From a virus, in the UHGV virus genome UHGV-0042155: DNA of 29,839 bases; one strand, 5' to 3'. The notes beneath the pieces were generated by a model that ran no database searches, had not been told where the DNA came from, and saw only the letters and a list, made by a program, of their open reading frames with translations. Below are positions 1 through 18,070 of this stretch, piece by piece (within the stretch, counting starts at the first letter, position 1; each line of letters begins with the position of its first letter). A program made the position numbers and the translations under genes.

Positions 1-1
1 A

Positions 2-1522
2 TACACTAAATCAGTAAGTTGGCACCATTACCTACCAAGTGGAGGCAAATTTGCCATTGATCTTTTTAGACAAGATCCAAGTCAGTATAAAACTGAGCTC
101 CGCCAACAACTGCGATTAGTGGATTCACGCTCACCTTACGCCAATGATTGGCTACCTCAGGGGTATGCTGATAAAAGCATTTATGCTTTTGGACGTAACG
201 AGTTTTCCAGTATTATTGAATCATCTATCGAATATAAACGTGAAGAAATAATTCGCCGTCTAAATCGTTTTGATCAAGAGTGTGATGATGCCCTATTAAC
301 TCTAGGAATTGATAAGGCCATATTAGAAAATTTATTTTCAGAGTTAACAGGACATGTCATTGGTGAGCGTCTGTATACACATGATATTCGTCTTAACGAG
401 TTACTAGCCAGAGATGTTAGGTTATTCGAGTCTGAATATTACTCTGCTATGTTGGACGTAGTACGAGAATCAGATAACAATGATGATTTAAAAAGGTACG
501 TCATATCATTTTTACAATTATTGGTCGGTGCACACGGACAATCTCTTGTTCAACGCCTAAACCAAGAGTTATTTGAGGCTGCACCGGATGATTTACCCAT
601 CTTCGATGATATTACCGGTATGTTCCGTCTGGAGTTTAATCGCATTGGTTCGACAGCTTTGGAACTATTGCTGGAAGAAAATAGAAATTTCAATATTGAT
701 GAGGATGCAACAGCTCTTACACTTTTCTGTGCTATAGCCCAAAAAGTATTAGAGAATCTGTTCACTACAGTACTCGACTACCAGAAATTGATAGATGACC
801 ATTTCCGATATCTCTTCTCACCTTCCACAGAATGGGCTAAATTTACTCGGATGGTTATTTTCCTCAAGATCGCACGCGATTATATTAGTTCCCAGGCACC
901 ATCTATCGAAGATCTTCCCGATCATGGCTATTATCATGACTTAGCTACATTTGATGGTGATCTAACAATTTCAGCCATTGGTACGGCTAATTATAACAGC
1001 CTTCTGGCAGAGGTTTTCCGTGGTATGAATATAGAATTACCACAAATTATTCACCTGAACGGCAGTGTACACGACTATTATAACCCTTATAAAAATGCGG
1101 TTATTACTTGTGAAAATCCAGATAACGTAGACCAACGTCAGATTCATGTTCCATTCATGCTGACGCAAAGCGGTCTTAAGCCTTTAACATCAGTAACTAT
1201 GTCAAGACGATACGTTAGTCTTTTTGATGCTTATGCTGAATCTGATGCTATTGTTGTTGTAGGTTTTGGATTTAATAAAGATGATAGCCATATTAATGGA
1301 CTTTTCCGTGAACTGGTCGAAAATAAAGGACGGAAATTAATTCTTATTTCGAGGCGTGTGGATGGAAGTGTTGAAGAACAGAAACGGCGGTTGCGAAACA
1401 AACTGCGTATTTCGCATGAGTTTAACCATTTGCTAATAGTAATTCCAGTAGATGATCTCACAAGGTGTCAAGGTGACCGACTATGGTTAGAGCAAGTTGT
1501 TGATACTTTGAACGAGGGATAA
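2..1522 (+). CDS. 5'-truncated cargo ORF of the island; hypothetical protein with C-terminal Rossmann-like motifs
   Basis: The reading frame of ORF 119..1522 stays open with no stop codon back to base 2, and the annotated start at 119 is GTG with no Shine-Dalgarno, so the gene most likely begins left of the window. AT-rich. C-terminal motifs TANYN...HLNGS...VVVGFGFNKDD loosely resemble the SIR2-like TTNYD/HLHG/GYSxxD pattern, but no GAGxS motif is visible. Confidence 0.55.
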   Translation, partial: YTKSVSWHHYLPSGGKFAIDLFRQDPSQYKTELRQQLRLVDSRSPYANDWLPQGYADKSIYAFGRNEFSSIIESSIEYKREEIIRRLNRFDQECDDALLTLGIDKAILENLFSELTGHVIGERLYTHDIRLNELLARDVRLFESEYYSAMLDVVRESDNNDDLKRYVISFLQLLVGAHGQSLVQRLNQELFEAAPDDLPIFDDITGMFRLEFNRIGSTALELLLEENRNFNIDEDATALTLFCAIAQKVLENLFTTVLDYQKLIDDHFRYLFSPSTEWAKFTRMVIFLKIARDYISSQAPSIEDLPDHGYYHDLATFDGDLTISAIGTANYNSLLAEVFRGMNIELPQIIHLNGSVHDYYNPYKNAVITCENPDNVDQRQIHVPFMLTQSGLKPLTSVTMSRRYVSLFDAYAESDAIVVVGFGFNKDDSHINGLFRELVENKGRKLILISRRVDGSVEEQKRRLRNKLRISHEFNHLLIVIPVDDLTRCQGDRLWLEQVVDTLNEG

Positions 1523-1611
1523 AGCAGCTGATGATGGTGCTATAACCATTATGGTTTCTATTAATACTCGCCAGCCCTTATCTCTCTGATAAGGGCCCTA
1601 ATTAATGCTAG

Positions 1612-2235
1612 TTAATTATTACTACACCCAAACGATCTATAACCGTCATCAAAGTTCTTGCTTTTCACTTTGGTGAGATAATCAATTCGATTCAGTAAAT
1701 CGTCGGGATAAATATCATTAAGAATATCATCACGATTCAGGGTATATTTACCATTAGAAGGATACTGTACTAGGTGCTGTCCCTCTTCGGGAGTTATACT
1801 TAATGCGCTGCACCATGCCGAGGTGATCATAGTTCTTAACGTATCTTCATCAAGATTGAAATCCCCTAAGTGGTAGTAAGCATCCTTGTTCAGAAACAGA
1901 AATACGTGAAAATGACGCTTACCATTCTGGGTAAATTCCCTCACCCACGCATAGCGGAGCGTATTCGGGTGTACCCGTTTACCTTCTTTACGCTTGCGCT
2001 GTTCATCTGCTGCCAGTTTGGCTTTCAGTGAATTGGTAAATCTTGATATAGATCCTGAATCAGTATTAGCGATACAGGAAATAGTATCACCATTATCCAG
2101 CATAACCGGGTCATGCAGATCCACCCGTATTGCCAGTGTACGTCCGTGTTCTTTAACAGATTTTGTAATAACATCGATAATCCTTTCTTTGTATGATTTA
2201 ACATGACTGCCATACTCGCTATCGTAGATATTCAT
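1612..2235 (-). CDS. inovirus Gp2-like / YfjJ-family protein
   Basis: 207-aa ORF with the motif RYAWVREFTQNGKRHFHVFLFLNKDAY typical of the YagK/YfjJ (inovirus Gp2-like) family; lies next to the YfjI-like gene as in CP4-57. Confidence 0.75.
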   Translation of the reverse strand: MNIYDSEYGSHVKSYKERIIDVITKSVKEHGRTLAIRVDLHDPVMLDNGDTISCIANTDSGSISRFTNSLKAKLAADEQRKRKEGKRVHPNTLRYAWVREFTQNGKRHFHVFLFLNKDAYYHLGDFNLDEDTLRTMITSAWCSALSITPEEGQHLVQYPSNGKYTLNRDDILNDIYPDDLLNRIDYLTKVKSKNFDDGYRSFGCSNN

Positions 2236-2459
2236 AATAATTCACCCCTCGATGGATAACAGTCATCGCATTACTGGCTATGGCCTACTAGTGATATATA
2301 TACAGGCATGGTTAATTGCAATATAATAACTATCCGACACTGAATTTTAGAAAAATAGTAGCCACAGCCTACGATGACTGATTGAAAGTTACTCTTTAAT
2401 TAGTTGTAATGAAGATAGGTTAATAAAACAATTATTGCGTCCTATCTTTGTTCTGTTCG

Positions 2460-3872
2460 TTATATAAGAATATCAACAGGTTGTATGAAAATGGTTTTCC
2501 CTATCTTCTCCGCCCGTATTTTCTTTTGCGAATAAAGTGTACTGAGAAGCTCATTCGCTTTGCTCCGATTCCTGAACCGGTTCGGACCATATTGCAAGAT
2601 GGTTGTCTTCCTGATATATGGCACCACACACCGGTAGCAATAATCTTTTATCCACGAATAAAGTTCATCTGCTTCTGAACTAACCAACAGCAACGTCTGG
2701 GGTTTAGAGAAAATTCTCACATACTCATCCACATACCAGGCGCTTATCTCTACTGCGGCTTCTACGGCACTGAGGGGTATATCCCCTTCATCACCATTAA
2801 ATTTATGCAGCAGAGCGGCAATCCTTGCCATATTTTCCGCCATTTTAGAGGCGTAATCCTTAAAGCCAGACAGGAAGCCAATCAACCCCATTTCTGACTC
2901 GACCTTGTTATAAAATTCGATCCAGTTCTTTTCGGCTTCTGCAGAGAAACGTAGGCACTGACGCGCATTTTCATCATTTCTGACAATGCTCTCGTTAACG
3001 ATCTCCATCAATCGTTTATGAAATACCGGTAGATGCTCGCTTGATATAACCGGGCTGGTAATTTGTCTGTAACCCTGTGTTGAACTAGGCTGACACATCA
3101 AACACCGCGCGAAGAATCCGATCCCTTTCGCTGTATCGCCTTTACGCTCCAGATACCCTTTTTTGAACACATCAGGCTGAACCATCAACGACAGTGTCAT
3201 TCTGGCGTCTTTGATTAATTTATCTGGCTCGCTTTTTCTTTCCACAGTAAACATTGCGCCATCCCACATTTTATTGATGAAAGGCAGTTCATTCAGCGCA
3301 TAGCCGTTAAAAATGGTACCAGCTTCATCAGACATAAGCCCGATGGACCGCCAACAACCACTGAGATAGTCTTTTATCGCCGCTGGTGTGGCATCATTGA
3401 ATATCTGCCTGAACCTGACCGGTGCTTTCGGGTTCGCCGACAGCAGCATTTTCAGCCGTTCATTCGTTGTGGAGTGATCTTTGTTACGGCGAATATCTGA
3501 TTTCAGTTTTGATATCAGGGCTTTCTTTTCAATGTTAAAAGTCGTTTCCTCATTCCGCCAGATAATTAAATCTTGGGTATATTTTTCAAAGCATGCTTCT
3601 TCCAGTTGATACAATGGCTTCATTAGCAGTTTGTCCACCGTGCTTTTGCGTTCACCAGAATCCGCCAGTGTCAGTAAAAAAAGTGATACTGGGCTGCGCA
3701 GATTATTCAGTCGGCACACATCAATCCGGTTCTGGCAGGCAAGCGAAATAACCCCCAACACCGATGCAGCAATCAAAGCCTGGGGTGCCTGCGTATGCTG
3801 TTCCACTTCATAAACCGCATTTCTGATGATCTGCGGGAAGACATGTACAGGGAAAGGACGACCACACGACAT
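2460..3872 (-). CDS. DUF3987-family (YfjI-like) protein
   Basis: 470-aa ORF of the size, strand and position of YfjI, immediately downstream of alpA in a CP4-57-like arrangement. Confidence 0.75.
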   Translation of the reverse strand: MSCGRPFPVHVFPQIIRNAVYEVEQHTQAPQALIAASVLGVISLACQNRIDVCRLNNLRSPVSLFLLTLADSGERKSTVDKLLMKPLYQLEEACFEKYTQDLIIWRNEETTFNIEKKALISKLKSDIRRNKDHSTTNERLKMLLSANPKAPVRFRQIFNDATPAAIKDYLSGCWRSIGLMSDEAGTIFNGYALNELPFINKMWDGAMFTVERKSEPDKLIKDARMTLSLMVQPDVFKKGYLERKGDTAKGIGFFARCLMCQPSSTQGYRQITSPVISSEHLPVFHKRLMEIVNESIVRNDENARQCLRFSAEAEKNWIEFYNKVESEMGLIGFLSGFKDYASKMAENMARIAALLHKFNGDEGDIPLSAVEAAVEISAWYVDEYVRIFSKPQTLLLVSSEADELYSWIKDYCYRCVVPYIRKTTILQYGPNRFRNRSKANELLSTLYSQKKIRAEKIGKTIFIQPVDILI

Positions 3873-4002
3873 AGATACCTCTCATTCTATTAATTTAATA
3901 AATAATTCAGCGAAATGGCTATTCTGCTATTAATAGCGGAAATAGCAGGATGACTACCGACAATCCGATGACAGCAATTGAGTATGAATTCATGTAGCAT
4001 CC

Positions 4003-4215
4003 TCAAATAAGTTTGCTGCGTTGCGATAGCCATTCTTCAATCTCTGATTCAACCCATCCAACAGATTTCACTCCGAGCATTCGCTTTTTGGGGAAGGAAG
4101 CATCGTAACGTGGTGATTTGGGGTTCAACCAATCGTAGATTGTTGCTCGTGCCATACCAGTTTTTTGGATAACAGCAGGTAAGCGGAGTATCCTAACGGT
4201 TGATGGATTATTCAT
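4003..4215 (-). CDS. alpA: AlpA-family phage transcriptional regulator
   Basis: 70-aa ORF MNNPSTVRILRLPAVIQKTGMARATIYDWLNPKSPRYDASFPKKRMLGVKSVGW..., near-identical to E. coli AlpA as recalled. Confidence 0.9.
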   Translation of the reverse strand: MNNPSTVRILRLPAVIQKTGMARATIYDWLNPKSPRYDASFPKKRMLGVKSVGWVESEIEEWLSQRSKLI

Positions 4216-4340
4216 GCTTGATTGCCTCTTATTAGTTCATTTTGGTTGTAGAAAGATTAGCGGCAAGCATCAATGCAAAAAATCCGTGTACCAAAAAAAC
4301 ATTTTTTACAACACTTAACTAATTGATATTTGGTGTATTT

Positions 4341-5219
4341 ATGTTGTCAGCGATTGAGTTTTGCGAAGAAATTAGTCAAAAATCGGATTGGCTTGCTGGG
4401 CATATGGTCGAATGTGATTGGGACATATATGTTGATCTGCTCAGCGAAAGGTATCCCGTGATACAGAAGGAACTAAGCGAGATGCGAGATCAATTCTGGA
4501 ATTCTGATAAGGTAGGAACACGTGTGATTTTGTACAGTGATCCATCTCGTAAGGAGTATAAATATTGTACTGTTGACGGAGTGGAGCAATTAAAAGAAGA
4601 ATATACAGAAGTATATGATCCAGCTCAGGAATGCTGGAAACAGTTAAAATCACGTATTTTCAGGGAAACGTTTTGTCATCTTATTCAGGATGATTTTTTA
4701 ATTAATGATGTGTTTAAGTCACATCTATTTTTTGCCTCAATGTCTTATCAATGGGCAAAATCAGTTATGTCGGAGAATGAATGTGTCGCTATTAAAGCGT
4801 TCATTAAGTCAGCTGAATTATTTGATAGATGTATTGGTATGTCATGGTTTCATGTTTCTGTATGTACCCAAAAAAAATTATCACATGTTAGAGCTAAGGC
4901 CGGAAAACAAGGTGGGAACAGTAAATCAGAGGTATATCGAATAATTCAAGATAAGCTTGTTTATTTGATCAATAACTCCGTACCTGAAGGTGGGTGGAAA
5001 AGTAAAGCAGCTGCGGTGAATGACCTCATTGACCCCTTATGGAAATTTGTCGAAGAGTCAAATTTTGAAATTAATAATCAAAGTAAAAAATATCGGATAT
5101 CAACAATGAGCCCTGATGCATTGGCAGATACCATTATAAAAAACTGGTCAAGAAATATTGAGAGTATCAAATTGGCTTTCGATAATACGGTTACTAGAAA
5201 AAAGAAAACCAAAGGGTAA
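4341..5219 (+). CDS. hypothetical AT-rich orphan protein at the intA-alpA position (yfjH-equivalent locus)
   Basis: Long ORF convergent with intA; the track start at 4323 is TTG, the first ATG is 4341. Low GC relative to flanks. No recognisable motif. Confidence 0.55.
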   Translation: MLSAIEFCEEISQKSDWLAGHMVECDWDIYVDLLSERYPVIQKELSEMRDQFWNSDKVGTRVILYSDPSRKEYKYCTVDGVEQLKEEYTEVYDPAQECWKQLKSRIFRETFCHLIQDDFLINDVFKSHLFFASMSYQWAKSVMSENECVAIKAFIKSAELFDRCIGMSWFHVSVCTQKKLSHVRAKAGKQGGNSKSEVYRIIQDKLVYLINNSVPEGGWKSKAAAVNDLIDPLWKFVEESNFEINNQSKKYRISTMSPDALADTIIKNWSRNIESIKLAFDNTVTRKKKTKG

Positions 5220-5277
5220 AATTCCGTATTACCTATAGGTGAGTTATCAGCACCCATTATGGGTGCTGATAAAGGAT

Positions 5278-6519
5278 TCATCCTACAAGACGTATTCCCC
5301 TAACCCCACTATTCACGATACTGCCGCTATCTGCTGCTTTAACAAAATCAGCCCACCACTGCATCATCGGTCGTCGTTGCTCAAGATAGTCACTTCGATT
5401 GTAAGCGCGACGTACCTCATTCTTATCTACATGAGCAAGTGCAGCCTCAATAACATCAGGCGGAAATCCTTCCTCATTGAGTGCCGTACTGGCAATAGAA
5501 CGTAAGCCGTGTGAAACGAGTACGCCTCCTAAACCAGCACGCTTAAGGGCTGCATTTACTGTCTGGCTGTTCATAGGCTGGGTAGGCTTAATGCGACTGG
5601 GAAAGATAAATTCTCGACCACCGCTGAGAGACTTCATTATTTCCAGAATAGCGAGAGCTCCATCAGATAATGGAACCGTATGCTCCCGATTCATCTTCAT
5701 TCGAGCAGCTGGAATTTTCCATTCGCTAGCATCGAAATCGATCTCATCCCATCGAGCCTCAGCAGCTTCGGCAGGGCGGGTGATGGTGAGAAGCTGCCAC
5801 ATGAACAGGCATCGTGTGGACAGGCTGATACTTGCCGTACGCATAGTCTGCATTAGCTGTGGAAGTTGACCTGGGTGGATGCTTGGCATGTTTTTCTTTT
5901 GCGGTTTCTCGAATGCTTTCCCGATGTTTACGCTGGGAACCGCATCAATCAGGCCTGTGTTCTGCGCATAAATCATGACTTCGTTAATACGCTGACAAAG
6001 GCGGCGGACTGTCTCTAATGCACCTCTGGCCTGAACCGGATGAACTGCTTTAACCAAAGTATGAGCCTTAATCTCAGTGACACTGATATCACCGATTGCC
6101 GGGAGAACATCCCTCTCAAGCGAGCGCCAGATATCGTCGGCATAGTCCTCTGTTACGCTGGCTTTCTTCACATTCCACCAACGCTCGGCAACTAACCGGA
6201 AAGTGTTGGTTTTGGCCTCTTGAGAATTTCTCACCTGTTCTTTCTGATGTTCCTGAGGATCAATGTCTTTCGCCAACAAAACTCGAGATTCAGCTCTGAG
6301 TTTACGCGCATCAGAAAGGGAGACGGCTGGATAGGCTCCGAAGCTCTGCTTGGTTCGCTGCTTGGTCAGAGGTCGATAGTAACGGAACTGCCAGAGCTTA
6401 CTACCGCTGGACTTGATTAGCAGAGTAAGCCCGTCACCATCATACAGCTGGTAATCGGCATCTTTAGGTTTGGCGGCTTTGATTTCCGTATCGGTTAACG
6501 GCTTGGTTTTTCTTGCCAT
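5278..6519 (-). CDS. intA: P4-type tyrosine integrase (CP4-57 IntA-like)
   Basis: 413-aa ORF MARKTKPLTDTEIKAAKPKDADYQLYDGDGLTLLIKSSGSKLWQFRYY...; length and N-terminus match CP4-57 IntA; sits next to the tmRNA 3'-end fragment. Confidence 0.9.
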   Translation of the reverse strand: MARKTKPLTDTEIKAAKPKDADYQLYDGDGLTLLIKSSGSKLWQFRYYRPLTKQRTKQSFGAYPAVSLSDARKLRAESRVLLAKDIDPQEHQKEQVRNSQEAKTNTFRLVAERWWNVKKASVTEDYADDIWRSLERDVLPAIGDISVTEIKAHTLVKAVHPVQARGALETVRRLCQRINEVMIYAQNTGLIDAVPSVNIGKAFEKPQKKNMPSIHPGQLPQLMQTMRTASISLSTRCLFMWQLLTITRPAEAAEARWDEIDFDASEWKIPAARMKMNREHTVPLSDGALAILEIMKSLSGGREFIFPSRIKPTQPMNSQTVNAALKRAGLGGVLVSHGLRSIASTALNEEGFPPDVIEAALAHVDKNEVRRAYNRSDYLEQRRPMMQWWADFVKAADSGSIVNSGVRGIRLVG

Positions 6520-6543
6520 GGGGAGTCTCCATGCGTTTAGGCC

Positions 6544-6641
6544 NNNNNNNNNNNNNNNNNNNNNNNNNNNNNNNNNNNNNNNNNNNNNNNNNNNNNNNNN
6601 NNNNNNNNNNNNNNNNNNNNNNNNNNNNNNNNNNNNNNNNN
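6544..6641. other. assembly gap (run of N)
   Basis: 98 consecutive N characters. Confidence 0.99.
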
Positions 6642-6714
6642 GGGCCTATCAATGGGCCTAAAAGGTTCGGATTTAATTAGTTCTCTTCGGACTTCGCGGG
6701 ACAAATTCAGGGCA

Positions 6715-6747
6715 CAAAAAAGCCCGCAGGGCTTGCGCCGTGCGGGC
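6715..6747 (-). terminator. rho-independent terminator downstream of the tmRNA 3'-end fragment
   Basis: Stem agcccgca (6720-6727) pairs with tgcgggct (6740-6747); a T-run follows on the minus strand (plus-strand A-run 6715-6720). Confidence 0.6.
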
Positions 6748-6794
6748 TCTTAGGACTTCATCGGATGACTCTGGTAATCACCGATGGAGAATTT

Positions 6795-6828
6795 TGGTGG
6801 AGCTGGCGGGAGTTGAACCCGTGTCCGA
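6795..6828 (-). other. tmRNA (ssrA) 3'-terminal fragment; attachment core shared by the two elements
   Basis: Minus-strand sequence TTCGGACACGGGTTCAACTCCCGCCAGCTCCACCA matches the T-arm, acceptor 3' strand and CCA end of enterobacterial tmRNA; sequence further 5' (6829 onward) does not look like tmRNA body. Confidence 0.7.
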
Positions 6829-6953
6829 ATAATGCTTAACCTATTGAATATTAATGTTTTGTCTTTTTTGAAAGGCCTCAAGTGCATTTTACGTGCATAT
6901 CGTGGTCCCTCTAACGTCCTGATTCCGTCCAACATTTTGAAATACTCACGACG

Positions 6954-8126
6954 CTACAGAGCTGCTGAAATGGCGGTTTTCCCGTCGTATTCAGCCAGGT
7001 ATTTACCGTAATTGCGGAACAGCATTTCCGGCCCTTTATGCCCCATCTGCCCGGCAAGCCAGAAAAGGTTTACGCCCTGGCTAATGTGTCTGGTGGCGAA
7101 TGTGTGGCGGGTCTGGTACGGGTTACGGTATCGAACGCCAGCTTTTTTGAGGGTTGGCACCCATGCTTTTTTTCGTATTGCGTCGGCGTTCGCCCAGGGC
7201 TCTCCCGTTTTAGGGTCGCTGAAAATAAACTCGCTTTTCATGAAAGTGAATTGTTTCTGCGCCTGCAGCGCGGCCAGCGCCTCGCTGTTTAATTCTACTT
7301 TACGGGTACCGGCTTTTGTTTTGGTGCCTTTCAGAACGCCAACAACACTCGCCGCCTGAACGTGAGCTGTTTTAGCGATATTGTCGAGATCAGGCCAGCG
7401 CAACGCACACAGCTCAGAGCTGCGTAAACCTGTATTGAATGCGAAACGGAACAGGTTTTCCCATTCCGGATAACTGCAGCTCTGGTAAATGGCGCTGATT
7501 TCCGCTGGTGTGAACGGATCAACTTCGTAATCGTCACTATTCGGGCTGCTGTCGATCACGTGGTACCGACTCGCGCTGACAAGGGTTACCGGGTTGATAG
7601 TCAGCAGGCCGTCTGTCACCGCTTCATCTATGGCGCTGCGCAGAAACGAGAGGTTATTCCTGATTGTTTTCAGCTTTGTTTTTCTGCTGGCGATCCAGTT
7701 TTTGAGGACCGCAGGGGTCAGTTCCGATACATGCATTTTGTGCAGCGCAGATAGCGCAGACAGGCACTTTTCATAACCGCCAATAGTGGACGGCGAAAGG
7801 TTGCGGTTCTGGCAGATTTTCAGATACTCGTCCAGGTAGGACTTAATATTTTTGGTTTTCTTCACTACCCCGAACAGCTCCAGTTTTTTGGAGGTGGGGA
7901 AGTATTTCGCATAATCGAATGTGCCGCCGGCGATCTGATTCTGTATCTCCCCCAGCAGGCGCTCGGCATACTTCACGCCGCGCGCGTTTGCTTCCATTCT
8001 GGAAAGGGGCTCCCGGCAGAGAACCCCCTTGTAGGTGAATGTGATCACCAGGGTGTCGCCAGTTTTATGCTGGCGAATGGTTACTCCTCTTGGGAGAGAT
8101 AATGATCCTTGTTCTTTCTTGCCCAC
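6954..8126 (-). CDS. lambdoid-phage tyrosine integrase
   Basis: 390-aa ORF with an N-terminal arm-binding-like region and C-terminal catalytic region (R...HTFATRH...Y); transcribed toward the att core, overlapped at its 5' end by xis. Confidence 0.9.
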   Translation of the reverse strand: MGKKEQGSLSLPRGVTIRQHKTGDTLVITFTYKGVLCREPLSRMEANARGVKYAERLLGEIQNQIAGGTFDYAKYFPTSKKLELFGVVKKTKNIKSYLDEYLKICQNRNLSPSTIGGYEKCLSALSALHKMHVSELTPAVLKNWIASRKTKLKTIRNNLSFLRSAIDEAVTDGLLTINPVTLVSASRYHVIDSSPNSDDYEVDPFTPAEISAIYQSCSYPEWENLFRFAFNTGLRSSELCALRWPDLDNIAKTAHVQAASVVGVLKGTKTKAGTRKVELNSEALAALQAQKQFTFMKSEFIFSDPKTGEPWANADAIRKKAWVPTLKKAGVRYRNPYQTRHTFATRHISQGVNLFWLAGQMGHKGPEMLFRNYGKYLAEYDGKTAISAAL

Positions 8127-8290
8127 TTTGAAACCTCCGTTAAGTCTATCCAGCGTTCTTTAACGCCATCGACTTTTAATACATGGACACCCTCTTTCCA
8201 TAACCCCCTTTGTATCCGTTTGTTAACGGCTTCAACCGTTTCTCCGGCGTCCCGGCAGTAGGTTGAAAGTGGTACGCAATCAAGACTCAT
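8081..8290 (-). CDS. excisionase-like protein
   Basis: Internal ATG at 8290 of ORF 8081..8434 gives a 69-aa protein MSLDCVPLSTYCRDAGETVEAVNKRIQRGLWKEGVHVLKVDGVKERWIDL...; overlaps the int start as in lambda. Confidence 0.6.
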   Translation of the reverse strand: MSLDCVPLSTYCRDAGETVEAVNKRIQRGLWKEGVHVLKVDGVKERWIDLTEVSKWARKNKDHYLSQEE

Positions 8291-8564
8291 GACCGACCTC
8301 CCGCCCGAATGCCTGGGCATTTTCCAGTTCATTTGCCGCATAGATAAGTGCGTTGTGGTGCGCTCTAAAACCGCCATCAAGTTCGCTGGCCGCTCTCTTG
8401 CGCAAAAAATCGATTGCAGCCTGATAGTCTTCACTGGCTGGCAGATCTCCCACGAGCATCAGCATGTTTTCCGGGTCGACAGGGATGGTGGTGAGCCCCA
8501 GCTGCTTGGCCTTCGTTGCCAGACGGGTCCAACGCTTAATAATTTCTGAAACTGGCTTATTCAT
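8280..8564 (-). CDS. hypothetical early-left phage protein
   Basis: 94-aa ORF; its stop lies 8 nt downstream of the xis start codon. Confidence 0.6.
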   Translation of the reverse strand: MNKPVSEIIKRWTRLATKAKQLGLTTIPVDPENMLMLVGDLPASEDYQAAIDFLRKRAASELDGGFRAHHNALIYAANELENAQAFGREVGHES

Positions 8565-8575
8565 GGAGCGCCTCG

Positions 8576-8671
8576 CTACCTCACCAAAAATTTATATTCA
8601 ATCAGCGCGCCGATAACGGTGGCCGCCAGTAGCAGGGAAACAATGATGCTGAAAGTGAAGGGCTTCATCAT
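8576..8671 (-). CDS. 31-aa hydrophobic single-TM peptide (below the ORF-track size cutoff)
   Basis: ATG ATG AAG... translates to MMKPFTFSIIVSLLLAATVIGALIEYKFLVR; its ATG overlaps the TGA stop of the upstream 137-aa gene (ATGA), and a GGGG Shine-Dalgarno is present. Confidence 0.4.
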   Translation of the reverse strand: MMKPFTFSIIVSLLLAATVIGALIEYKFLVR

Positions 8672-9081
8672 TTCACCCCTGCTGGTTTGATGGCCTGCAG
8701 TGCATCAACCTCTTTAACGAATCGGTCATGCATCGCGTCCCATTTCTCACACCATTTCTCCATTTCTCGCTTGCGCGCCAGGATACGACGCAGACGGCGA
8801 ACACAACGCTGGTGGGCGGCCAGATACTCAGCCTTTGTTTCCCCGTCTCGCCATACCTCCATATCATCGCGATCAATACGCACTCGCGGGTGACGCTGTG
8901 GAAAACCTGAACGCTCAAAAGCCTCGGTGGTCATGAAGAAAGCCAGATAGCGGATCGCCGTATCGCGGGTGAAGCATTTTTTGACGCGGCCGTGACGGCG
9001 TGCCACGAACAACGGACCTGCCGGGGTATCATGTTGCTGTAATGCCAGGTCGATTGCGCTGGCGATGCGTTTATCAGTCAT
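8668..9081 (-). CDS. hypothetical early-left phage protein (137 aa)
   Basis: Internal start MTDKRIAS... at 9081 preferred over the track's 200-aa version, whose N-terminus is low-complexity and overlaps the upstream gene; ATGA overlap with that gene's stop. Confidence 0.6.
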   Translation of the reverse strand: MTDKRIASAIDLALQQHDTPAGPLFVARRHGRVKKCFTRDTAIRYLAFFMTTEAFERSGFPQRHPRVRIDRDDMEVWRDGETKAEYLAAHQRCVRRLRRILARKREMEKWCEKWDAMHDRFVKEVDALQAIKPAGVK

Positions 9082-9299
9082 TTTCTGTCCTTCAATTTTG
9101 AATAGCGTTCGTGGCTCATTACTTCCCAGCTCTGGCCGCCGTCGCGGGAAAGCAGGCGCCAGCGGAGATTCACACTCAGGCTCAGATAGCCAGTCTTGTG
9201 CATGCGGCGGGGGTGGATCCGCCCGGCGCGGTGCTGGCGCAGCACACGCACAGCCCTTTCGTGAACCCATTCAGGGATTCGGATCGCAGTAAGTGTCAT
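9078..9299 (-). CDS. hypothetical small basic protein (73 aa)
   Basis: ORF translationally coupled to its neighbours in the early-left operon. Confidence 0.5.
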   Translation of the reverse strand: MTLTAIRIPEWVHERAVRVLRQHRAGRIHPRRMHKTGYLSLSVNLRWRLLSRDGGQSWEVMSHERYSKLKDRK

Positions 9300-9535
9300 G
9301 AATGCTCCTGCGTGATGGCCGCTGTTTTCTTAGCATGTTCGACCAGCTCTGCCACAAGCTCATCAACCAGCAGCTTTCCGCTTTCAGTCAGGTATTCGCC
9401 ATGACCATTCACATCAACTGCATTCCGGTACAAATCGCGGATAGCTTTATCGCCTGCCACCGGGCCATGCTCACTTCGCGCCATTTTTTCAAACCGGCAC
9501 AGAAGCCCGTCGAATAAAATCTCGGTCAGCTCCAT
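9296..9535 (-). CDS. hypothetical protein (79 aa)
   Basis: Internal start MELTEILFDG... chosen; the start is uncertain. Confidence 0.45.
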   Translation of the reverse strand: MELTEILFDGLLCRFEKMARSEHGPVAGDKAIRDLYRNAVDVNGHGEYLTESGKLLVDELVAELVEHAKKTAAITQEHS

Positions 9536-9638
9536 GGTCGTTATTCCGCCTTTCGGAAGAGTAATAACAATGCAGGTTGTGCCTGTTTTACGTTGGTGGC
9601 GTAATAACGCTGCCTTTAAAATTCGGCGGCGGTAGGTT

Positions 9639-9842
9639 TCAATTACGTTGTTTTTCACGACGTTCAAACTCCGAATCCATCCACATTGAGACCTGAGCCG
9701 ACAAGTCAAGGCAGAGGCCAGACAGGGAAATTATTTGCTCGATATCCATATCAATAATATTGGAGTTGATTAACTCCATTAATTGATAAAGGTTATCTGC
9801 TGTATTTTTTGCGGTTTCTAGAGAACTGTCTCTACTGAGCAT
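9639..9842 (-). CDS. hypothetical small protein (67 aa)
   Basis: ORF in the early-left operon orientation. Confidence 0.45.
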   Translation of the reverse strand: MLSRDSSLETAKNTADNLYQLMELINSNIIDMDIEQIISLSGLCLDLSAQVSMWMDSEFERREKQRN

Positions 9843-9978
9843 ATTCAGACTCCGTAAGCTTTACGCATGAAAAGGTCAGATATATGGCGGTACTCGTCGC
9901 CATAGACCATAAAGAAAAGACATGCTGTTTTGTATGCCGCTTTATCGATTAACATTTACTTACCCATTTAAAAGTTGG

Positions 9979-10638
9979 TTAACGTGGTTGAGTAAATCGC
10001 TGTTGCATTCCCGCTATTTTTTTCATCAGGCCTGCATGTAGTAGTGGGTGAATCTCATCACATGTGGGCTTCCAGTCCTTAGCCTGTTGCATCTTGGCTG
10101 TGTGCCAGGCTAAGTGGGCTTCCTGTGTGGTGTTGAAAAGCCCAAGGTGTGAAATCTTTCCGTTTACGTTGATTCGTGCCCGAAACTTAGCGGACTGTTT
10201 ATGCCAGATAACACCCTGTGGGTATTTCCCTCGTAAACGGGCGCGATCACCTGTAAATAAGTTAAGTGCTGGGGGAACAAATACGCAGTATTCAGGACCA
10301 TATATCTTGTTACCATGGTGTAGCAGGTCCTTATCTAGCACATATCCATCGCGATAGTTTTCTTTCCAGAACGCCAGAAAGTTTGAGAATCGCAGCCACT
10401 CATCGGCAACAGTACATCCGGCGTAACTGTGCTCTAACTGTTCTGTGTGCGGTTTGTAGCAGCGAGATAACATGCCGCTCCAACGACGGTGAGCGCTGTG
10501 GTGGCACATTATTCCGTCGATGATAATAGTGCTGGGGAATTCTACGTCATAATGACCAACACCATACTCCAGGCTTTTTAAATGCCTACGCCGCGAAACT
10601 TTTGATTCAAGAAGACTATCTATTTCAGATTGGTTCAT
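9979..10638 (-). CDS. AP2-domain phage protein (HNH-endonuclease-associated family)
   Basis: GVIWHKQSAKFRARINVNGKISHLGLFNTTQEAHLAWH is a clear AP2 DNA-binding motif; Cys/His-rich N-terminal region. Confidence 0.75.
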   Translation of the reverse strand: MNQSEIDSLLESKVSRRRHLKSLEYGVGHYDVEFPSTIIIDGIMCHHSAHRRWSGMLSRCYKPHTEQLEHSYAGCTVADEWLRFSNFLAFWKENYRDGYVLDKDLLHHGNKIYGPEYCVFVPPALNLFTGDRARLRGKYPQGVIWHKQSAKFRARINVNGKISHLGLFNTTQEAHLAWHTAKMQQAKDWKPTCDEIHPLLHAGLMKKIAGMQQRFTQPR

Positions 10639-10707
10639 TTCAATCTCCTCTGAAATTTGGTTGCACGTATCCCCACCAGGGATGGTGTGATTTAAACTAC
10701 CTATTAA

Positions 10708-11127
10708 TTAATTTAATTTTATTTCGATGCTTTTCAGTAATTCATGTACCTTAATGGTATTATCGAAAATAAGTGATGCCATCAGGCAATCAGCGTCATC
10801 ACTGTCTTTTCCTGAAAAATATGATTCGTTATATACGTGAGCCAGTTCCCTGAGTTTTGCAGCGCTGACTGTGGCATAAAAAATATCATCGGCAATATCA
10901 TCTCTATTCCCGATGGGGGGGTTAACTGTCTTTGCAGTATTTGCTAACTCTTCGATGTATGCGTAAGCTGTTTCACGGGTTTTATCGAAAGAGCGAATGA
11001 GGCAGGCTAAGCCGCAATCAGTTTCCTCGTTCATTTCTTCGGTGTTTCTATAAATCATTTCCAGAAGAGTATTGCCTTCGGAAATCTGAGCGACGATATC
11101 ATGAAGCATGTCTAATGGAGTTTTCAT
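10708..11127 (-). CDS. acidic hypothetical protein (139 aa), second gene of an AT-rich two-gene operon
   Basis: About 19% Asp+Glu, net charge roughly -13. Its ATG immediately follows the TAA of the upstream gene (TAAATG). Markedly lower GC than the surrounding phage genes. Confidence 0.65.
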   Translation of the reverse strand: MKTPLDMLHDIVAQISEGNTLLEMIYRNTEEMNEETDCGLACLIRSFDKTRETAYAYIEELANTAKTVNPPIGNRDDIADDIFYATVSAAKLRELAHVYNESYFSGKDSDDADCLMASLIFDNTIKVHELLKSIEIKLN

Positions 11128-11340
11128 TTATTCATTCTCCGGCCAATCATAACCAAGTTCATGGTTTAGAACAGAAAGATTATCCCTTAACTGATTGATA
11201 CAAATTTTAATGAGTGCCGCTGGTTTATATGCAACATCTGGATCTGATTCTGCGTACTCAAGCGCATTGATTACACGATCAATATCCATCGCAATTTTGT
11301 GGACAGTTCCGTTCTCGGAAAGCATTTTCTCTACATTCAT
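11128..11340 (-). CDS. acidic hypothetical protein (70 aa), first gene of the pL transcript
   Basis: First ATG (11340) has a GGAG Shine-Dalgarno; the track's TTG start at 11400 would run through the promoter and operator. Acidic and AT-rich. Confidence 0.6.
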   Translation of the reverse strand: MNVEKMLSENGTVHKIAMDIDRVINALEYAESDPDVAYKPAALIKICINQLRDNLSVLNHELGYDWPENE

Positions 11341-11371
11341 TTCATAGGCTCCGTTGTCTGCTGATGAAGTG

Positions 11372-11400
11372 AATTTAGCAAAATGGTAAAAGCCATGCAA
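11372..11400 (-). promoter_or_regulatory. putative pL promoter with overlapping repressor operator
   Basis: Minus strand reads TTGCAT-N17-TAAATT. The 17-mer at 11374-11390 (tttagcaaaatggtaaa) matches the OR site at 12238-12254 at 15 of 17 positions with both half-sites identical. Confidence 0.5.
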
Positions 11401-11483
11401 ATGATAAATGCTAAATTATTTACTTTTTCTTTTATGTATTTGATAAATAATATAATTATTTATTATTATTCTTCGGTGGGCAT

Positions 11484-11511
11484 AAAAAAACCCACCATCA
11501 GGTCGGGTGGG
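11484..11511 (-). terminator. rho-independent terminator downstream of cI
   Basis: Stem cccacc (11491-11496) / ggtggg (11506-11511) followed on the minus strand by a T7 run (plus-strand A-run 11484-11490). Confidence 0.6.
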
Positions 11512-11529
11512 GGGGGGTAAAGATGGGGG

Positions 11530-12219
11530 TTACAGGGCGGGCATTTCATCATTGTCAACATAACGCGTATGCTTAACAATAGCTGAAACAAAATGCATTT
11601 TCTCGATGCTATCAGGACTTAAGGTGATGGGCCTGTGATCACTGTTTACACTTGAGAATTGATAATCGCCATCGCGAGTTTTACTCATGATTTTTATCAT
11701 GTTATGCCCATCTTTTGTTCGCACAAAAACCTCATCACCTGTATGAACTTGGGTGTTTGGCTCTATGACGACATATTCTCCAGACTGTATGCGTGGCCAC
11801 ATGCTGTCTCCCTTCACTTTCAGCCCATAGGCATCCCTATCCGCGCTGTATATTTGTAGCCATCCAGCGTGGATCTCTAGCATATCGATCATTCCGTCAA
11901 TCCCAAGAATCGCTTCCCCTACAACTGGTACAGCTCCCGGACGGACTGATCCGACATACTCCAACTCGCTTTTAATACTGCCAGGAGCATTGTGTGGACT
12001 ATCCAGCCACCCAAACGGACGATCCAAGGCCTGTTCAATCTTTCTGGCCATTTTGTCCCCTATGTTTCGATGGCTATTGCCCCCAAGCAACTGGCTCAAC
12101 TGGGCAGGGCTTATCCCGCACAATTCTGCGAAAGCTGCTTTTGTCGTATGTCTGTCGCGCTTCAGGAACTCAACAATGAGCTGCTCAAGGTTTGATTTGC
12201 GTATGCTTTTTATGTCCAT
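11530..12219 (-). CDS. CI-like repressor (HTH plus S24 LexA-type peptidase domain)
   Basis: N-terminal HTH (AAFAELCGISPAQLSQLL) and C-terminal S24 motifs (GDSMWP, Lys in NMIKIM); divergent from the cro-like gene across an operator region. Confidence 0.9.
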   Translation of the reverse strand: MDIKSIRKSNLEQLIVEFLKRDRHTTKAAFAELCGISPAQLSQLLGGNSHRNIGDKMARKIEQALDRPFGWLDSPHNAPGSIKSELEYVGSVRPGAVPVVGEAILGIDGMIDMLEIHAGWLQIYSADRDAYGLKVKGDSMWPRIQSGEYVVIEPNTQVHTGDEVFVRTKDGHNMIKIMSKTRDGDYQFSSVNSDHRPITLSPDSIEKMHFVSAIVKHTRYVDNDEMPAL

Positions 12220-12237
12220 GTCAAAATAATCTCATTA

Positions 12238-12305
12238 TTTAGCAATGTGGTAAATACACAAACTGCTAAATGATTATTGCATTTAATTTAGCAAAAAGCT
12301 AAAGT
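12238..12305. promoter_or_regulatory. OR-like operator/promoter region (pR, possible pRM)
   Basis: 17-bp sites tttagcaatgtggtaaa (12238-12254) and the perfect palindrome tttagcaaaaagctaaa (12287-12303), with further TGCTAAA half-sites between them; candidate pR is TTGCAT (12277-12282)-N17-TAAAGT (12300-12305). Confidence 0.55.
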
Positions 12306-12330
12306 TGATTCATTGCAACAGGAGACCGTA

Positions 12331-12558
12331 ATGAACAACCAATTACTTGCTTGGCGTAAGTGCTCAACAAAAGAGCAGTGGGCAGATCTTGCTAAAAAAT
12401 CAGGCACATCTCCGGGATACCTGAATCTCATTGCTTATGGTCATCGCAATGCTTCCCCCAGACTGGCATTGGCGATCGAGAGCGCATCAAAGTCATTCGT
12501 GAATAAGCCAGTTATTACAAAAGAACAGTTGGTTTTCAAGAGCGGTTCTGAGGTGTGA
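12331..12558 (+). CDS. Cro-like HTH regulator
   Basis: First ATG with an AGGAG Shine-Dalgarno (track start 12313 is TTG); small protein divergent from cI. Confidence 0.7.
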   Translation: MNNQLLAWRKCSTKEQWADLAKKSGTSPGYLNLIAYGHRNASPRLALAIESASKSFVNKPVITKEQLVFKSGSEV

Positions 12559-12559
12559 T

Positions 12560-12757
12560 ATGTCGCACTCGATCACTACCGAAAACCAAGTTAAGCCATT
12601 GGATATCGATTATCGCGATCCGCGCGGTGTGATTGTGCATGTCACCGGCTGGAATCGGGATAAACAGCAGGTGTACTTCACCAGGCAGAATTATCCGCAT
12701 GAATGCATGCAGCCTGTCTGGAAGTTTCAAAATTATTTCAGGAGGGTTGTGGAGTGA
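12560..12757 (+). CDS. small early-right protein (65 aa)
   Basis: ORF tightly packed between cro and the replication gene; its stop overlaps the GTG start of the next gene. Confidence 0.5.
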   Translation: MSHSITTENQVKPLDIDYRDPRGVIVHVTGWNRDKQQVYFTRQNYPHECMQPVWKFQNYFRRVVE

Positions 12758-13686
12758 GCAATTTCTTACAGCTCGTTGATCGTCCAATAGCCTTTCAACG
12801 GTCCTTCGTTCGCCTTGGCGTGGGTATTACAGGTGCATTGCTATTGTCACAGATTGTCTATTGGCAGAACCGCATGGAAGGGAATTGGTTCTACAAAACC
12901 CAGACAGATCTCGAAGAAGAGACTGGATTAACGCGTTACGAACAAGAGGGAGCGCGTAAAAAGCTGGTTTCCTGTGGCGTACTGGAAGAAGCAAAACGTG
13001 GCATCCCAGCAAAATTATATTTCAGAGTAAACCAGGAGCGCTTGGAAGAACTTCTACTTGGCGAAAACCAGCATGCAGGTATGGGGAAAACCAACAAACA
13101 AGGATGCGGAATTTCCGCAAACAGTGATGCGGAAAACCAGCATGCAGGTATGGGGAAAACCAACGAGCAGTCATGTGGAAATTCCGCATCCATTCATACA
13201 GTAGATTACCAGGAGACTACACAGAAGATTAATACAGAGAATAAATATCTTGGTGCATCGGCTGAAGCCGACACACCGAAAGTGAAATCTTCAACTGATT
13301 ATTCTCCTGCATTTGAAGAAGCCTGGCAGGCATACCCAAAACGTAGCGGTGGAAATAACAAGCTAAGCGCATTCAAAGCCTGGAACGCACGTATTAAACA
13401 GGGCGTAAAACCAGAGACGATGCTGGAAGGGGTTAAGCGCTACGCAGCTTTCATGGCCTCTGAGGGAAAGATCGGTACTTCGTTCGTCAAGCAGGCGGCG
13501 ACGTTCTTCGGGCCGGATAAACATTTCGATGAACCGTGGCTGGTAGAGACCCAGGAAAACAAAGTCCCTACCCGACAAGACCAGTCTCGCTACGAGTGGT
13601 ACGCAAAGTCTGATGACGGCTCTGCCGAGGTGTTTATCAATCAGTCAGCGATCGATCGCATGAACCGTGGCGGGTATCGCCCATGA
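12754..13686 (+). CDS. putative replication initiator/organiser
   Basis: GTG start at 12754 preceded by AGGAGG (the track's ATG at 12703 overlaps the upstream gene). Sits directly upstream of the primase-helicase and contains internal tandem repeats like ori inside lambda O. Confidence 0.7.
   Translation: MSNFLQLVDRPIAFQRSFVRLGVGITGALLLSQIVYWQNRMEGNWFYKTQTDLEEETGLTRYEQEGARKKLVSCGVLEEAKRGIPAKLYFRVNQERLEELLLGENQHAGMGKTNKQGCGISANSDAENQHAGMGKTNEQSCGNSASIHTVDYQETTQKINTENKYLGASAEADTPKVKSSTDYSPAFEEAWQAYPKRSGGNNKLSAFKAWNARIKQGVKPETMLEGVKRYAAFMASEGKIGTSFVKQAATFFGPDKHFDEPWLVETQENKVPTRQDQSRYEWYAKSDDGSAEVFINQSAIDRMNRGGYRP
13063..13200 (+). repeat. tandem direct repeat (two ~69-bp units) inside the initiator gene; putative ori iterons
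   Basis: Units begin at 13063 and 13132 with an identical 33-nt head gaaaaccagcatgcaggtatggggaaaaccaac; the 8-mer GAAAACCA occurs four times at 23/46/23-bp spacing; encodes a repeated peptide ENQHAGMGKTN. Confidence 0.8.
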
Positions 13687-13789
13687 AAATACTCCTCAAA
13701 CGTCTACTGGTTGCTGGCTATAACCGCGGCTTTTTGCGTGAGGAATTCGTGACTATGTGCTTTATAAAATTCGATTTACGGAGTGTGTG

Positions 13790-15661
13790 ATGACCCCTGC
13801 TGAGTTATCTGAAAAATTGTGGGACAACGCCGAAAGAGTTGCGAAATACCTGCTTCCACGAGGACACCTCGAGGGCAAGGAGTGGTGCGCTGGTAATACC
13901 AATGGTGATGCCGGTAAGAGCCTGAAAATTAATCTCGGTGGTAAGAAGACTTGGGCAGATTTTGCAAGCGGCGACAGCGGAGACCTGCTTGATCTTTGGG
14001 TGCTGGTGCGTAACTGCCAGCTGCACGACGCTATGCGGGAAGCGAAAGAGTTCCTTGGGCTGAAGGACGACGATAACCACTTCGAGGCGAAGAAAAAAAC
14101 CTTCTCACGGCCAACCAAAAAAGGCGTTAAAAAGGCGAGCCATTGCTACGACTACCTCTCTTCCCGTGGCATCACCCGAGAGACAGCTGATCAATTCCGT
14201 GTTTCGGACGCAGTCGTCTGGTACCACGATGAAAACCGCGAAATTCCGGCAGTGGCGTTTCCGTATCTTCGCAACGGTGAGCTTTTGCAGGTAAAGCGAA
14301 TCGGCACTGAACGACCAAATGGCAAAAAGTTGATCATGGCTGAAGCTGATTGCGAGCCATGTCTGTTTGGCTGGCAGGCTATGGACGCGAAAGCTCGCGC
14401 TGTTGTGCTTTGCGAAGGAGAGATTGACTGTATGACCTACTCGCAATTCGGTATCAGTGCTCTATCGGTACCGTTCGGCGGTGGAAAAGGGGCCAAACAG
14501 CAATGGATCGAATACGAGTATCACAACCTCGACCGATTCGAAGAAATTTGGTTAAGCCTCGATAACGATGATGTAGGGCGCGAAGCCGCAAAAGAAATTG
14601 CTCGTCGCCTGGGGGAGCATCGTTGCCGCCTGGTAGAGCTGCCGCACAAAGATATCAATGAATGTCTGACCTCCGGGATGAGCGAGGATGAAATCTGGCA
14701 CTACTTGGGGACCGCTAAATTCTTCGACCCTGATGAACTCTGCTCTGCGGGTGATCTCCTTCAGGAAACACTGGATGCATTCGAGCATCGAGATGTTGGA
14801 TTATTTTCCAGCCCGTGGGATTCGCTGAACAGTAATTTCAAATTCCGCGCCGGAGAGCTGACGCTGGTTAACGGAGTAAACGGCCACGGAAAAACCGAGC
14901 TGGTGGGACATATCGCCGTCAATGCCATGAGCCAGGGAGTCCGGGTATGCATTGCCTCGCTGGAGCTTAAGCCTGGGAAAATGTTGGCTCGTCTTACCCG
15001 GCAAACCATTTGTAGAAAAAACCCAGAACGTACTGAAATCATCATGACTAACGAGTGGTTTTCTGATCGTCTTTGGGTGTTCAAACTCACCGGAACAGCC
15101 AAGGCCGATCGACTGTTGGAAATATTTGCCTATGCCAGACGCCGCTATGGAATCGATCTTTTCGTTATCGACAACTTGGCAAAATGTGGACTCGATGAGG
15201 AGGACTACGGTGGACAAAAAGAATTTATCGATACCCTCTGCGACTTTAAAAACGAGCACAACTGCCATGTTCTGCTGGTAACGCATGCCAGAAAAACAAA
15301 CGAAGCTGCACCAACAGGGAAAATGGATGTTAAAGGCACTGGCGCTTTAACTGACATGCCCGACAACGTTATGGCGGTCTGGCGTAATATCCCGCGCGAA
15401 CTGGCGCAGCGCAAAGCTGAAAGAATGGGGTATGAGAGCCTTGATAAGGACGAACAGACTGCTATCCAAATGCCCGCTTCGATGATCCGCCTGTTGAAAC
15501 AACGTGAAGGGGAAGGCTGGATCGGAGACATAGGGGCTAACTTTGATTCCCGCTCACACCAGTTTATCGAGGGTGATAAAGGGCCCTTCAATTACTTGGC
15601 CGGCAAACAGCAAAGTGAACTTGATATTGAGTGGGAAGCCACCAACGCAACGAGGTATTAA
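13790..15661 (+). CDS. bifunctional primase/helicase (TOPRIM plus DnaB-like RecA-fold)
   Basis: TOPRIM motifs CEGEIDCMT and LDNDDVG; Walker A GVNGHGKTE and Walker B LFVIDNL in the C-terminal half; ATG 13790 with a GGAG Shine-Dalgarno. Confidence 0.85.
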   Translation: MTPAELSEKLWDNAERVAKYLLPRGHLEGKEWCAGNTNGDAGKSLKINLGGKKTWADFASGDSGDLLDLWVLVRNCQLHDAMREAKEFLGLKDDDNHFEAKKKTFSRPTKKGVKKASHCYDYLSSRGITRETADQFRVSDAVVWYHDENREIPAVAFPYLRNGELLQVKRIGTERPNGKKLIMAEADCEPCLFGWQAMDAKARAVVLCEGEIDCMTYSQFGISALSVPFGGGKGAKQQWIEYEYHNLDRFEEIWLSLDNDDVGREAAKEIARRLGEHRCRLVELPHKDINECLTSGMSEDEIWHYLGTAKFFDPDELCSAGDLLQETLDAFEHRDVGLFSSPWDSLNSNFKFRAGELTLVNGVNGHGKTELVGHIAVNAMSQGVRVCIASLELKPGKMLARLTRQTICRKNPERTEIIMTNEWFSDRLWVFKLTGTAKADRLLEIFAYARRRYGIDLFVIDNLAKCGLDEEDYGGQKEFIDTLCDFKNEHNCHVLLVTHARKTNEAAPTGKMDVKGTGALTDMPDNVMAVWRNIPRELAQRKAERMGYESLDKDEQTAIQMPASMIRLLKQREGEGWIGDIGANFDSRSHQFIEGDKGPFNYLAGKQQSELDIEWEATNATRY

Positions 15662-15662
15662 A

Positions 15663-15974
15663 ATGGATCGCCTAATTAGAGAAATGTCGTATCTCTTTAC
15701 CAAGCAGCGTTTTATGGAGCTTCAGGAAACGGCAAAAGACATCGCAATCGGTCATAGTGATTTTCCTGAGTGTTTCGGTCTTATTGCTGACGCCATCGCT
15801 GAATTTGTTGAAGACACTCCTGATGATGAGTGGCGAGAGCATGAAAAAATCCTTATGCACTACGTTGCTATGCGTGTTCTGACGCTGTGGGGTAACGGCG
15901 ATAAAGTGACTGATGTCCAGTGGGCGCACCCTGGCTGGTTTGGCACTGCTGAAAAGGGGGAAACCATTCAATGA
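15663..15974 (+). CDS. hypothetical phage protein (103 aa)
   Basis: ATG 1 nt after the primase-helicase stop; its stop overlaps the Q-like start. Confidence 0.6.
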   Translation: MDRLIREMSYLFTKQRFMELQETAKDIAIGHSDFPECFGLIADAIAEFVEDTPDDEWREHEKILMHYVAMRVLTLWGNGDKVTDVQWAHPGWFGTAEKGETIQ

Positions 15975-16807: not shown

Positions 16808-16826
16808 CATTATTACGACATAAGGC

Positions 16827-18068: not shown

Positions 18069-18070
18069 GA

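Follow-up and report, generated by a model that had tools for sequence, protein, structure and literature searches.

Results

We analysed a 29,839-nt draft scaffold from E. coli MS 115-1 (hereafter, the window), with a closed genome of the strain, NZ_CP146665.1, used for comparison. Two elements, each with its own integrase gene, adjoin one another in the window (Table 1). One is the int-proximal part of a lambdoid prophage, with int, xis, early genes, a cI-like repressor gene, a Q antiterminator gene, tRNAs, and lysis, terminase, portal and capsid genes. The other is a CP4-57-like island with a P4-type integrase gene, intA. Both integrase genes are on the minus strand, such that the lambdoid integrase (6954-8126) is transcribed toward a short copy of the 3' end of ssrA, the tmRNA gene, and IntA (5278-6519) away from it, as described in the first-pass annotation of this sequence. 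The lambdoid integrase stop codon is 124 nt from this ssrA-derived core.

Table 1. Features of the window around the ssrA-derived core, with positions counted from the first base of the window.
Feature	Position	Strand	Description
CP4-57-like island, remnant	1..6794	-	left arm, intA, yfjH-position ORF, alpA, yfjI, yfjJ, SIR2-like ORF
intA, P4-type tyrosine integrase, 413 aa	5278..6519	-	94% full-length identity to K-12 IntA; reads away from att
Scaffold gap, 98 N	6544..6641	.	actual length 26 nt, CAACGAAAACAATAGAGCTTTTCGTT
Intrinsic terminator, AGCCCGCA-loop-TGCGGGCTTTTTT	6716..6748	-	downstream of CCA; from sequence, terminator scan and K-12 identity
ssrA terminal 15 nt, CCGCCAGCTCCACCA	6795..6809	-	identity block (attL) of the CP4-57-type element, nested in the 35-nt phage core
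Displaced ssrA 3' fragment (T-arm, acceptor 3' strand, CCA)	6795..6829	-	core of the lambdoid prophage attR
Phage P arm	6830..6953	-	int stop codon to core; 113/120 identical to the LMessi attP left arm
Int-proximal 23 kb of the 41.18-kb lambdoid prophage	6830..29839	+	closed-genome annotation
Tyrosine integrase of the lambdoid prophage, 390 aa	6954..8126	-	Pfam Arm-DNA-bind_2 and Phage_integrase; reads toward the att site
Excisionase, 69 aa	8081..8290	-	97% identical to the annotated phiES15 excisionase; 3' end overlaps the int start

We searched the whole window with the 3' end of E. coli ssrA (TTCGGACGCGGGTTCAACTCCCGCCAGCTCCACCA), allowing up to three mismatches, and obtained a single site, with one mismatch; none of 100 shuffled sequences gave any site. 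The site, at 6795-6829 on the minus strand (TTCGGACACGGGTTCAACTCCCGCCAGCTCCACCA), reproduces, with that one mismatch, the last 35 nt of ssrA, CCA included. The initial annotation had correctly reported a tmRNA 3'-terminal copy with CCA on this strand, but had given its length as 34 nt (6795-6828). In the alignment to host ssrA that had been suggested as a check, all 35 nt are identical except at position 6822, where the minus strand has an A in place of the G of intact ssrA. The ssrA terminator that had been noted downstream of the copy is also present; it matches the terminator that follows ssrA in K-12-type genomes, and has here been displaced from ssrA along with the fragment. The interval from the CCA to the intA start codon corresponds nearly base for base to the ssrA-intA interval of K-12, with 149 of the first 150 nt being identical.

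In the K-12 annotation, CP4-57 starts 15 nt before the end of ssrA, and its far end is marked by a 14-nt psaA fragment (CCGCCAGCCCACCA); the CP4-57 att sequence is also given in Table 1 of PMC10107115. Since the 15-nt CP4-57 block is nested within the 35-nt phage core, the sequence at 6795-6829 doubles as the prophage attR and the island attL. The idea of an att core common to both tandem elements therefore stands, although the two att blocks are nested rather than identical (35 nt for the phage, and approximately the last 15 nt of ssrA for CP4-57, going by the K-12 annotation).

The N run lies between the core and intA. The first-pass annotation had placed this gap exactly at the junction of the two elements, and had regarded their linkage as needing confirmation. 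The gap in fact falls within the CP4-57 left arm, 153 nt away from the core, with the terminator on one side and the intA start codon on the other. Nonetheless, it separates intA from the ssrA fragment, and the tandem arrangement would be a scaffolding artefact if the contigs on either side of the N run were not neighbours. A megablast search with positions 6643-7400 gave a 100% match in the closed MS 115-1 chromosome, of which positions 1-6543 of the window are an exact substring; positions 6642-29839 are 99.974% identical to it, the differences over these 23.2 kb being 5 mismatches and 1 indel, which shows that the closed genome, though of the same strain, is a separate assembly. In this closed genome, the sequences flanking the gap are contiguous, being 26 nt apart rather than 98. 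K-12 likewise has an unbroken sequence of ssrA terminus, terminator, hairpin and intA start codon, with a handful of substitutions relative to the window. The 26-nt spacing in the closed genome and the contiguity in K-12 together indicate that the linkage across the N run is real. Moreover, strain DX6 has the same order of int, fragment and intA, and the 26 nt missing from the draft supply the loop and one strand of the stem of a 15-bp hairpin within the CP4-57 left arm (DNA fold of -18.2 kcal/mol, z = -4.5), a structure strong enough that it may have caused the draft assembly to break. We therefore give a scaffolding artefact almost no weight. The hairpin itself (GGCCCAACGAAAAGC / GCTTTTCGTTGGGCC; window 6539-6660) is perfectly paired over 15 bp, lies between the ssrA terminator and the start of intA, and is conserved in K-12; it could be a regulatory or Int/AlpA-related site of the CP4-57 left arm.

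A different concern is that the sequence at 6795-6996 might be more than a bare att core, namely a miniature RNA gene, tmRNA-like or tRNA-like, carried by the phage. ARAGORN found no tmRNA gene in the window, and nor did Rfam at the gathering score, in agreement with the earlier statement that no tmRNA body is present; neither program detected in the window the tRNA-like domain, tag reading frame and pseudoknots, at gathering score, by which a tmRNA is recognised. A permissive Rfam search did return a tmRNA match (RF00023) at 6795-6996, in which GGCUG and UACGACGGG (6976-6996) are paired with the 3' terminus, scoring 30.2 bits against a cut-off of 47. This sub-threshold match is carried by the 3' terminus, lacks the middle 306 positions of the model, and has no counterpart in the ARAGORN output. 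Its 5' half falls within the last codons of int (..LAEYDGKTAISAAL and the stop codon), where TACGACGG codes for Y-D-G, a tripeptide conserved in all three integrases, and the bases that would pair with the acceptor vary, with GGCAGTG in phiES15 and GGA in place of GGG in LMessi. An RNA gene at this position is thus extremely improbable, and we rejected the candidate 5' part of a hidden tmRNA or mini-tmRNA at 6976-6996 (GGCUGAAUACGACGGGA) as the product of chance and coding constraint, with pairing that is not kept in LMessi or phiES15.

An Rfam match to IsrM at 6716-6804 was also set aside. It scores 32 bits against a cut-off of 376, and 43 of its 50 aligned bases are the terminator; the remainder is a 7-nt match to the 5' end of the model that lies inside the ssrA core, and we conclude that this is not an IsrM gene. 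IsrM is a Salmonella island-encoded sRNA, and its 3' terminator in the Rfam model is almost the same as the one that follows ssrA in the CP4-57 arm (6716-6804, minus strand), which hints that the 3' end of IsrM may derive from a homologous island arm at Salmonella ssrA.

The prophage integrase is 98.5% identical in amino acid sequence to that of the free Escherichia phage LMessi, 93.3% to that of phi467, 90.5% to those of the PhiR12 phages, and 91.7% to that of Cronobacter phage phiES15, all of them temperate phages; free phages thus have orthologues of both the integrase and the excisionase. Int is the first of a series of lambdoid genes in the closed genome, namely those for an S24-peptidase repressor, a Cro-like regulator, a Q-type antiterminator, tRNAs, a lambda-family holin, terminase, portal, S49 protease, and decoration and major capsid proteins, then tail genes through the tip fibre and tail fibres; the series ends at ssrA. 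This gene set looks complete. Outside the window, beyond the far end of the prophage, where the first-pass annotation had expected it, is an intact ssrA (NZ_CP146665.1, 1211553-1211915), which adjoins smpB and has the same orientation as the fragment, with 41,180 bp separating the two copies of the core.

The prophage has a cluster of tRNA genes following the Q antiterminator gene, at 17992-18300 on the plus strand: one with a CAT anticodon, which PGAP calls tRNA-Ile and which is 93.5% identical to the chromosomal ileY, a tRNA-Thr (TGT) and a tRNA-Gly (TCC). ARAGORN additionally reports a "tRNA-???" with a two-base anticodon at 18071-18144, a call that Rfam and PGAP do not share and that is probably a degenerate tRNA. 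Just downstream of the cluster is a match to the Rfam sRNA family STnc100 (18519-18711, plus strand; 71.7 bits against a gathering score of 47).

LMessi (PP925823) has the identical 35-mer, including the A allele, 124 nt past its int stop codon, and there the core is directly followed by the sequence found after intact ssrA in MS 115-1. The LMessi attP is thus both prophage arms joined through the 35-nt ssrA core, which upholds the original reading of the fragment as an att core. With attP represented by LMessi (left arm P, core allele A, right arm P'), attB by a K-12-type site (ssrA body, G, CP4-57 arm), attL by the intact ssrA of MS 115-1 (ssrA body, G, P') and attR by the window (P, A, CP4-57 arm), we compared the arms of all four sites. 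The left arms are identical at 113/120 positions between attP and attR and at 120/120 between attB and attL, and the right arms at 154/160 between attP and attL and at 149/150 between attB and attR. By contrast, non-cognate pairs of arms are identical at just 26/120 and 41/150 positions. Judged from these alignments, the four-way pattern is the signature of integrase-mediated recombination between attP and attB within the core. The A allele stays with the P arm and the G allele with the ssrA body, so the exchange occurred 3' of position 6822, within 6795-6821; the exact crossover may have been in the T-loop or at the junction between the T and acceptor stems, and the subsites recognised by Islander include "T loop" and "J". 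The phiES15 record (NC_018454) annotates a 26-nt ssrA core as attP.

Both phage arms contain a TGCAC-N6-ATGCAC repeat, the P-arm copy being TGCACGTAAAATGCAC at 6882-6897 (repeat family D2); these repeats are candidate arm-type sites for the N-terminal domain of Int. In the P' arm, which lies outside the window in the closed genome (L002 32400-32553, minus strand), there is a terminator-like hairpin (AACCCCAGA...TCTGGGGTTTTT) approximately 130 nt past the ssrA CCA, and this hairpin with its T-run replaces the displaced native terminator after intact ssrA. The corresponding LMessi hairpin has two differences, one in the loop and one in the 3' stem arm, and its stem can still pair.

IntA has the Pfam architecture of a P4-type integrase (Arm-DNA-bind_3, Phage_int_M, Phage_integrase), and is unrelated to the prophage Int beyond the catalytic fold (E = 0.012). 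As expected of a CP4-57-like element, its gene follows the ssrA terminus directly and reads away from it, with the distance and sequence between CCA and ATG being as in K-12. Beyond intA is the core module of AlpA, YfjI and YfjJ (Pfam Phage_AlpA, DUF3987 and YagK_YfjJ_C) in K-12 order. Together with the 94% identity of IntA, this supports the earlier designation of the second element as CP4-57-like.

Using the K-12 psaA variant and the full ssrA terminus as queries, we detected no distal att copy of the island in the window or in the closed-genome flank through ileY to ygaQ. Hence, of the second att copies sought beyond the window, that of the prophage is present at intact ssrA, whereas none was found for the CP4-57-like member as far as ygaQ. 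In the closed genome, an IS1 lies just left of window base 1 and is followed by ileY, a ygaQ pseudogene, glaH, lhgO and the gab genes, all of which are located beyond CP4-57 and ypjA in K-12. Given that no distal att copy was detected, and that IS1 abuts backbone genes, the island is an IS1-truncated remnant of 7-8 kb without its distal end, the most likely cause of the loss being a deletion associated with IS1. Since no attR partner was detected, excision of the remnant is predicted to be impossible.

Discussion

We propose that the locus is a composite att junction formed when two elements integrated site-specifically, one after the other, into the 3' end of the tmRNA gene, the CP4-57-like island first and the lambdoid phage second, and we hold this reading with high confidence. 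The island, with its P4-type IntA, would have been established directly downstream of ssrA, as in K-12. Later, a temperate lambdoid phage of the LMessi/phiES15 integrase type would have recombined its attP, in which the T-arm, acceptor strand and CCA of ssrA are present as a 35-nt copy, with the ssrA 3' end. One product, attL, is the intact ssrA, now trailed by the P' arm with its own terminator-like hairpin and T-run; the other, attR, 41.18 kb away, consists of the phage int, the P arm, the core, the old ssrA terminator and intA.

That the island preceded the phage is the most economical history, given that the island is decayed and the prophage is complete, with att arms near-identical to those of the free phage. 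Of 5426 complete E. coli genomes, 716 have the CP4-57 left arm, and in 636 it is contiguous with the ssrA body; the arm is displaced from ssrA in approximately 65-80 genomes, a rough figure, being the difference between two BLAST counts made under different coverage rules. Just 16 genomes cover the prophage junction query to 80% or more. A common CP4-57 arm that is usually contiguous with ssrA, together with an IS1-truncated remnant, fits CP4-57 being the older resident. In the reverse order of events, the phage would have entered a naive ssrA, and the CP4-57-like island would later have inserted into the displaced fragment. Such a history is compatible with the displaced fragment having retained the terminal 15 nt used by CP4-57, and a tandem array can be extended at either of the regenerated cores (PMC7192596). 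Nonetheless, it is the CP4-57-like member that is degraded, being truncated by IS1 and with no distal att copy found through to ygaQ, while the prophage appears to be complete, with attP arms near-identical to those of the free phage; moreover, the widespread junction is that of ssrA with CP4-57 (636 E. coli genomes) and the rare one that of the prophage (16 genomes, at 80% or greater query coverage). We consider the reverse order very unlikely, and favour integration of the island followed by that of the phage.

The phage targets ssrA independently of CP4-57. In E. coli UMNK88, the same type of integrase gene (96.9% nucleotide identity) lies beside the core, which is followed by ATCATGATTGGACGGTG..., and ssrA in that genome is without CP4-57. 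In K-12, the ATCATGATTGGACGGTG flank is the sequence just outside the distal end of CP4-57, on the ypjA side, and it is therefore the native downstream flank of ssrA. The MS 115-1 tandem reflects the reuse of a popular site, with no dependence between the two elements. In DX6, int, fragment and intA are ordered as in the window, with a diverged integrase gene (87.5% nucleotide identity) and a core that has no exact match to the 27-mer anchor used for the att comparison.

Tandem arrays at the tmRNA gene are well documented, reportedly in the 2003 work of Williams and also by Islander and TIGER. The Islander method is based on the principle that integration into tRNA and tmRNA genes regenerates the gene and displaces its 3' fragment; the tmRNA gene is the most enriched target in Islander, Islander lists tandem arrays as a category (125 among 3919 islands), and the strict rule is that each array member has its own fragment and integrase (PMC4383910). 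Of the features that define such arrays for Islander and Williams, MS 115-1 has an intact ssrA at one end of the array (in the closed genome), a 3' fragment in the same orientation between the elements (6795-6829, on the ssrA strand), and an integrase of its own for each member (6954-8126 and 5278-6519). A distal target fragment of its own is present for the prophage; for the CP4-57-like member, none was found as far as ileY/ygaQ. The MS 115-1 locus is thus like documented arrays in its succession of intact ssrA, first element, displaced same-orientation 3' fragment, and second element with its own integrase, and in the use of one gene by different integrase families. It does not differ from them in kind, but the distal member appears to have lost its far att to an IS1-associated truncation; strictly, only the prophage is a complete member.

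The two elements belong to known families. The island shares with CP4-57 of K-12 an IntA of 94% identity, a near-identical arm from CCA to the intA start codon, and the order of AlpA, YfjI and YfjJ; it differs in being away from the working ssrA, in its truncation by IS1, in that no psaA-like attR was found, and in its cargo past yfjJ, which is a SIR2-like ORF rather than abpAB and rnlAB. The prophage resembles LMessi, phi467, PhiR12 and phiES15 in integrase type and in having an ssrA-core attP, a likeness that covers the integrase, excisionase and att region; in phiES15, the core is approximately 1.5 kb from int, as compared to approximately 125 nt in the MS 115-1 prophage. As in phage lambda, int is beside att and reads toward it, xis is just upstream and overlaps int, and the integrase has an arm-binding N-terminal domain, with repeated candidate arm sites in both arms. 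In contrast to lambda, the prophage Int is of a subfamily for which Arm-DNA-bind_2 (PF12167) is the sole arm-domain family matched, the lambda Int arm domain being filed under a different Pfam family, and the target is the tmRNA gene, whereas the lambda attB lies between gal and bio. The arrangement is therefore real but already known, indeed textbook, with a phage attP that is already annotated in a public record, and it raises no new question about integration mechanisms. The comparison does fix the boundaries of the MS 115-1 prophage (attR at 6795-6829 and, 41.18 kb from it, attL at the intact ssrA), resolves the gap in the draft to 26 nt, and identifies the CP4-57-like element as an apparently immobile remnant.

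In K-12, excision of CP4-57 leaves ssrA without T357 and inactivates trans-translation (PMC10107115). This switch should be inoperative in MS 115-1, given that 41 kb separate the working ssrA from the island attL, which is a non-functional fragment and has no partner site. Even if the remnant were excisable, its separation from the working gene suggests that it could not alter that gene. For users of MS 115-1, the expectation is that K-12-style, excision-driven inactivation of tmRNA should be absent. A more speculative possibility, and one that we think unlikely, is that the prophage uncouples the CP4-57 switch (T357 deletion, with rescue shifted to ArfA) from tmRNA, such that phage traffic at ssrA could disable or re-arm the switch, and that the displaced fragment and terminator may serve as the 3' end of the int transcript, as in lambda sib retroregulation. 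If true, the uncoupled switch and the int 3'-end role would extend known biology only modestly.

The CP4-57-like remnant is cut short by IS1 in both MS 115-1 (L001 1710-2407) and DX6 (L008 1908-2605), but not at the same place: in MS 115-1 the break follows the SIR2-like ORF, and in DX6 it follows intA directly. Both breaks abut the ileY/ygaQ region, suggesting that IS1-mediated deletions have occurred repeatedly at the locus. The ORF beside the IS1 break in MS 115-1 (119-1522, plus strand, 467 aa) is in the position of island cargo, where K-12 has abpAB and rnlAB. Its similarity to SIR2 is weak (22.8 bits for Pfam SIR2_2 against a cut-off of 24.5, and E-values of approximately 1e-5 to 1e-6 for Aga_SIR2/SIR2 in PADLOC), and it is possibly a defence gene.
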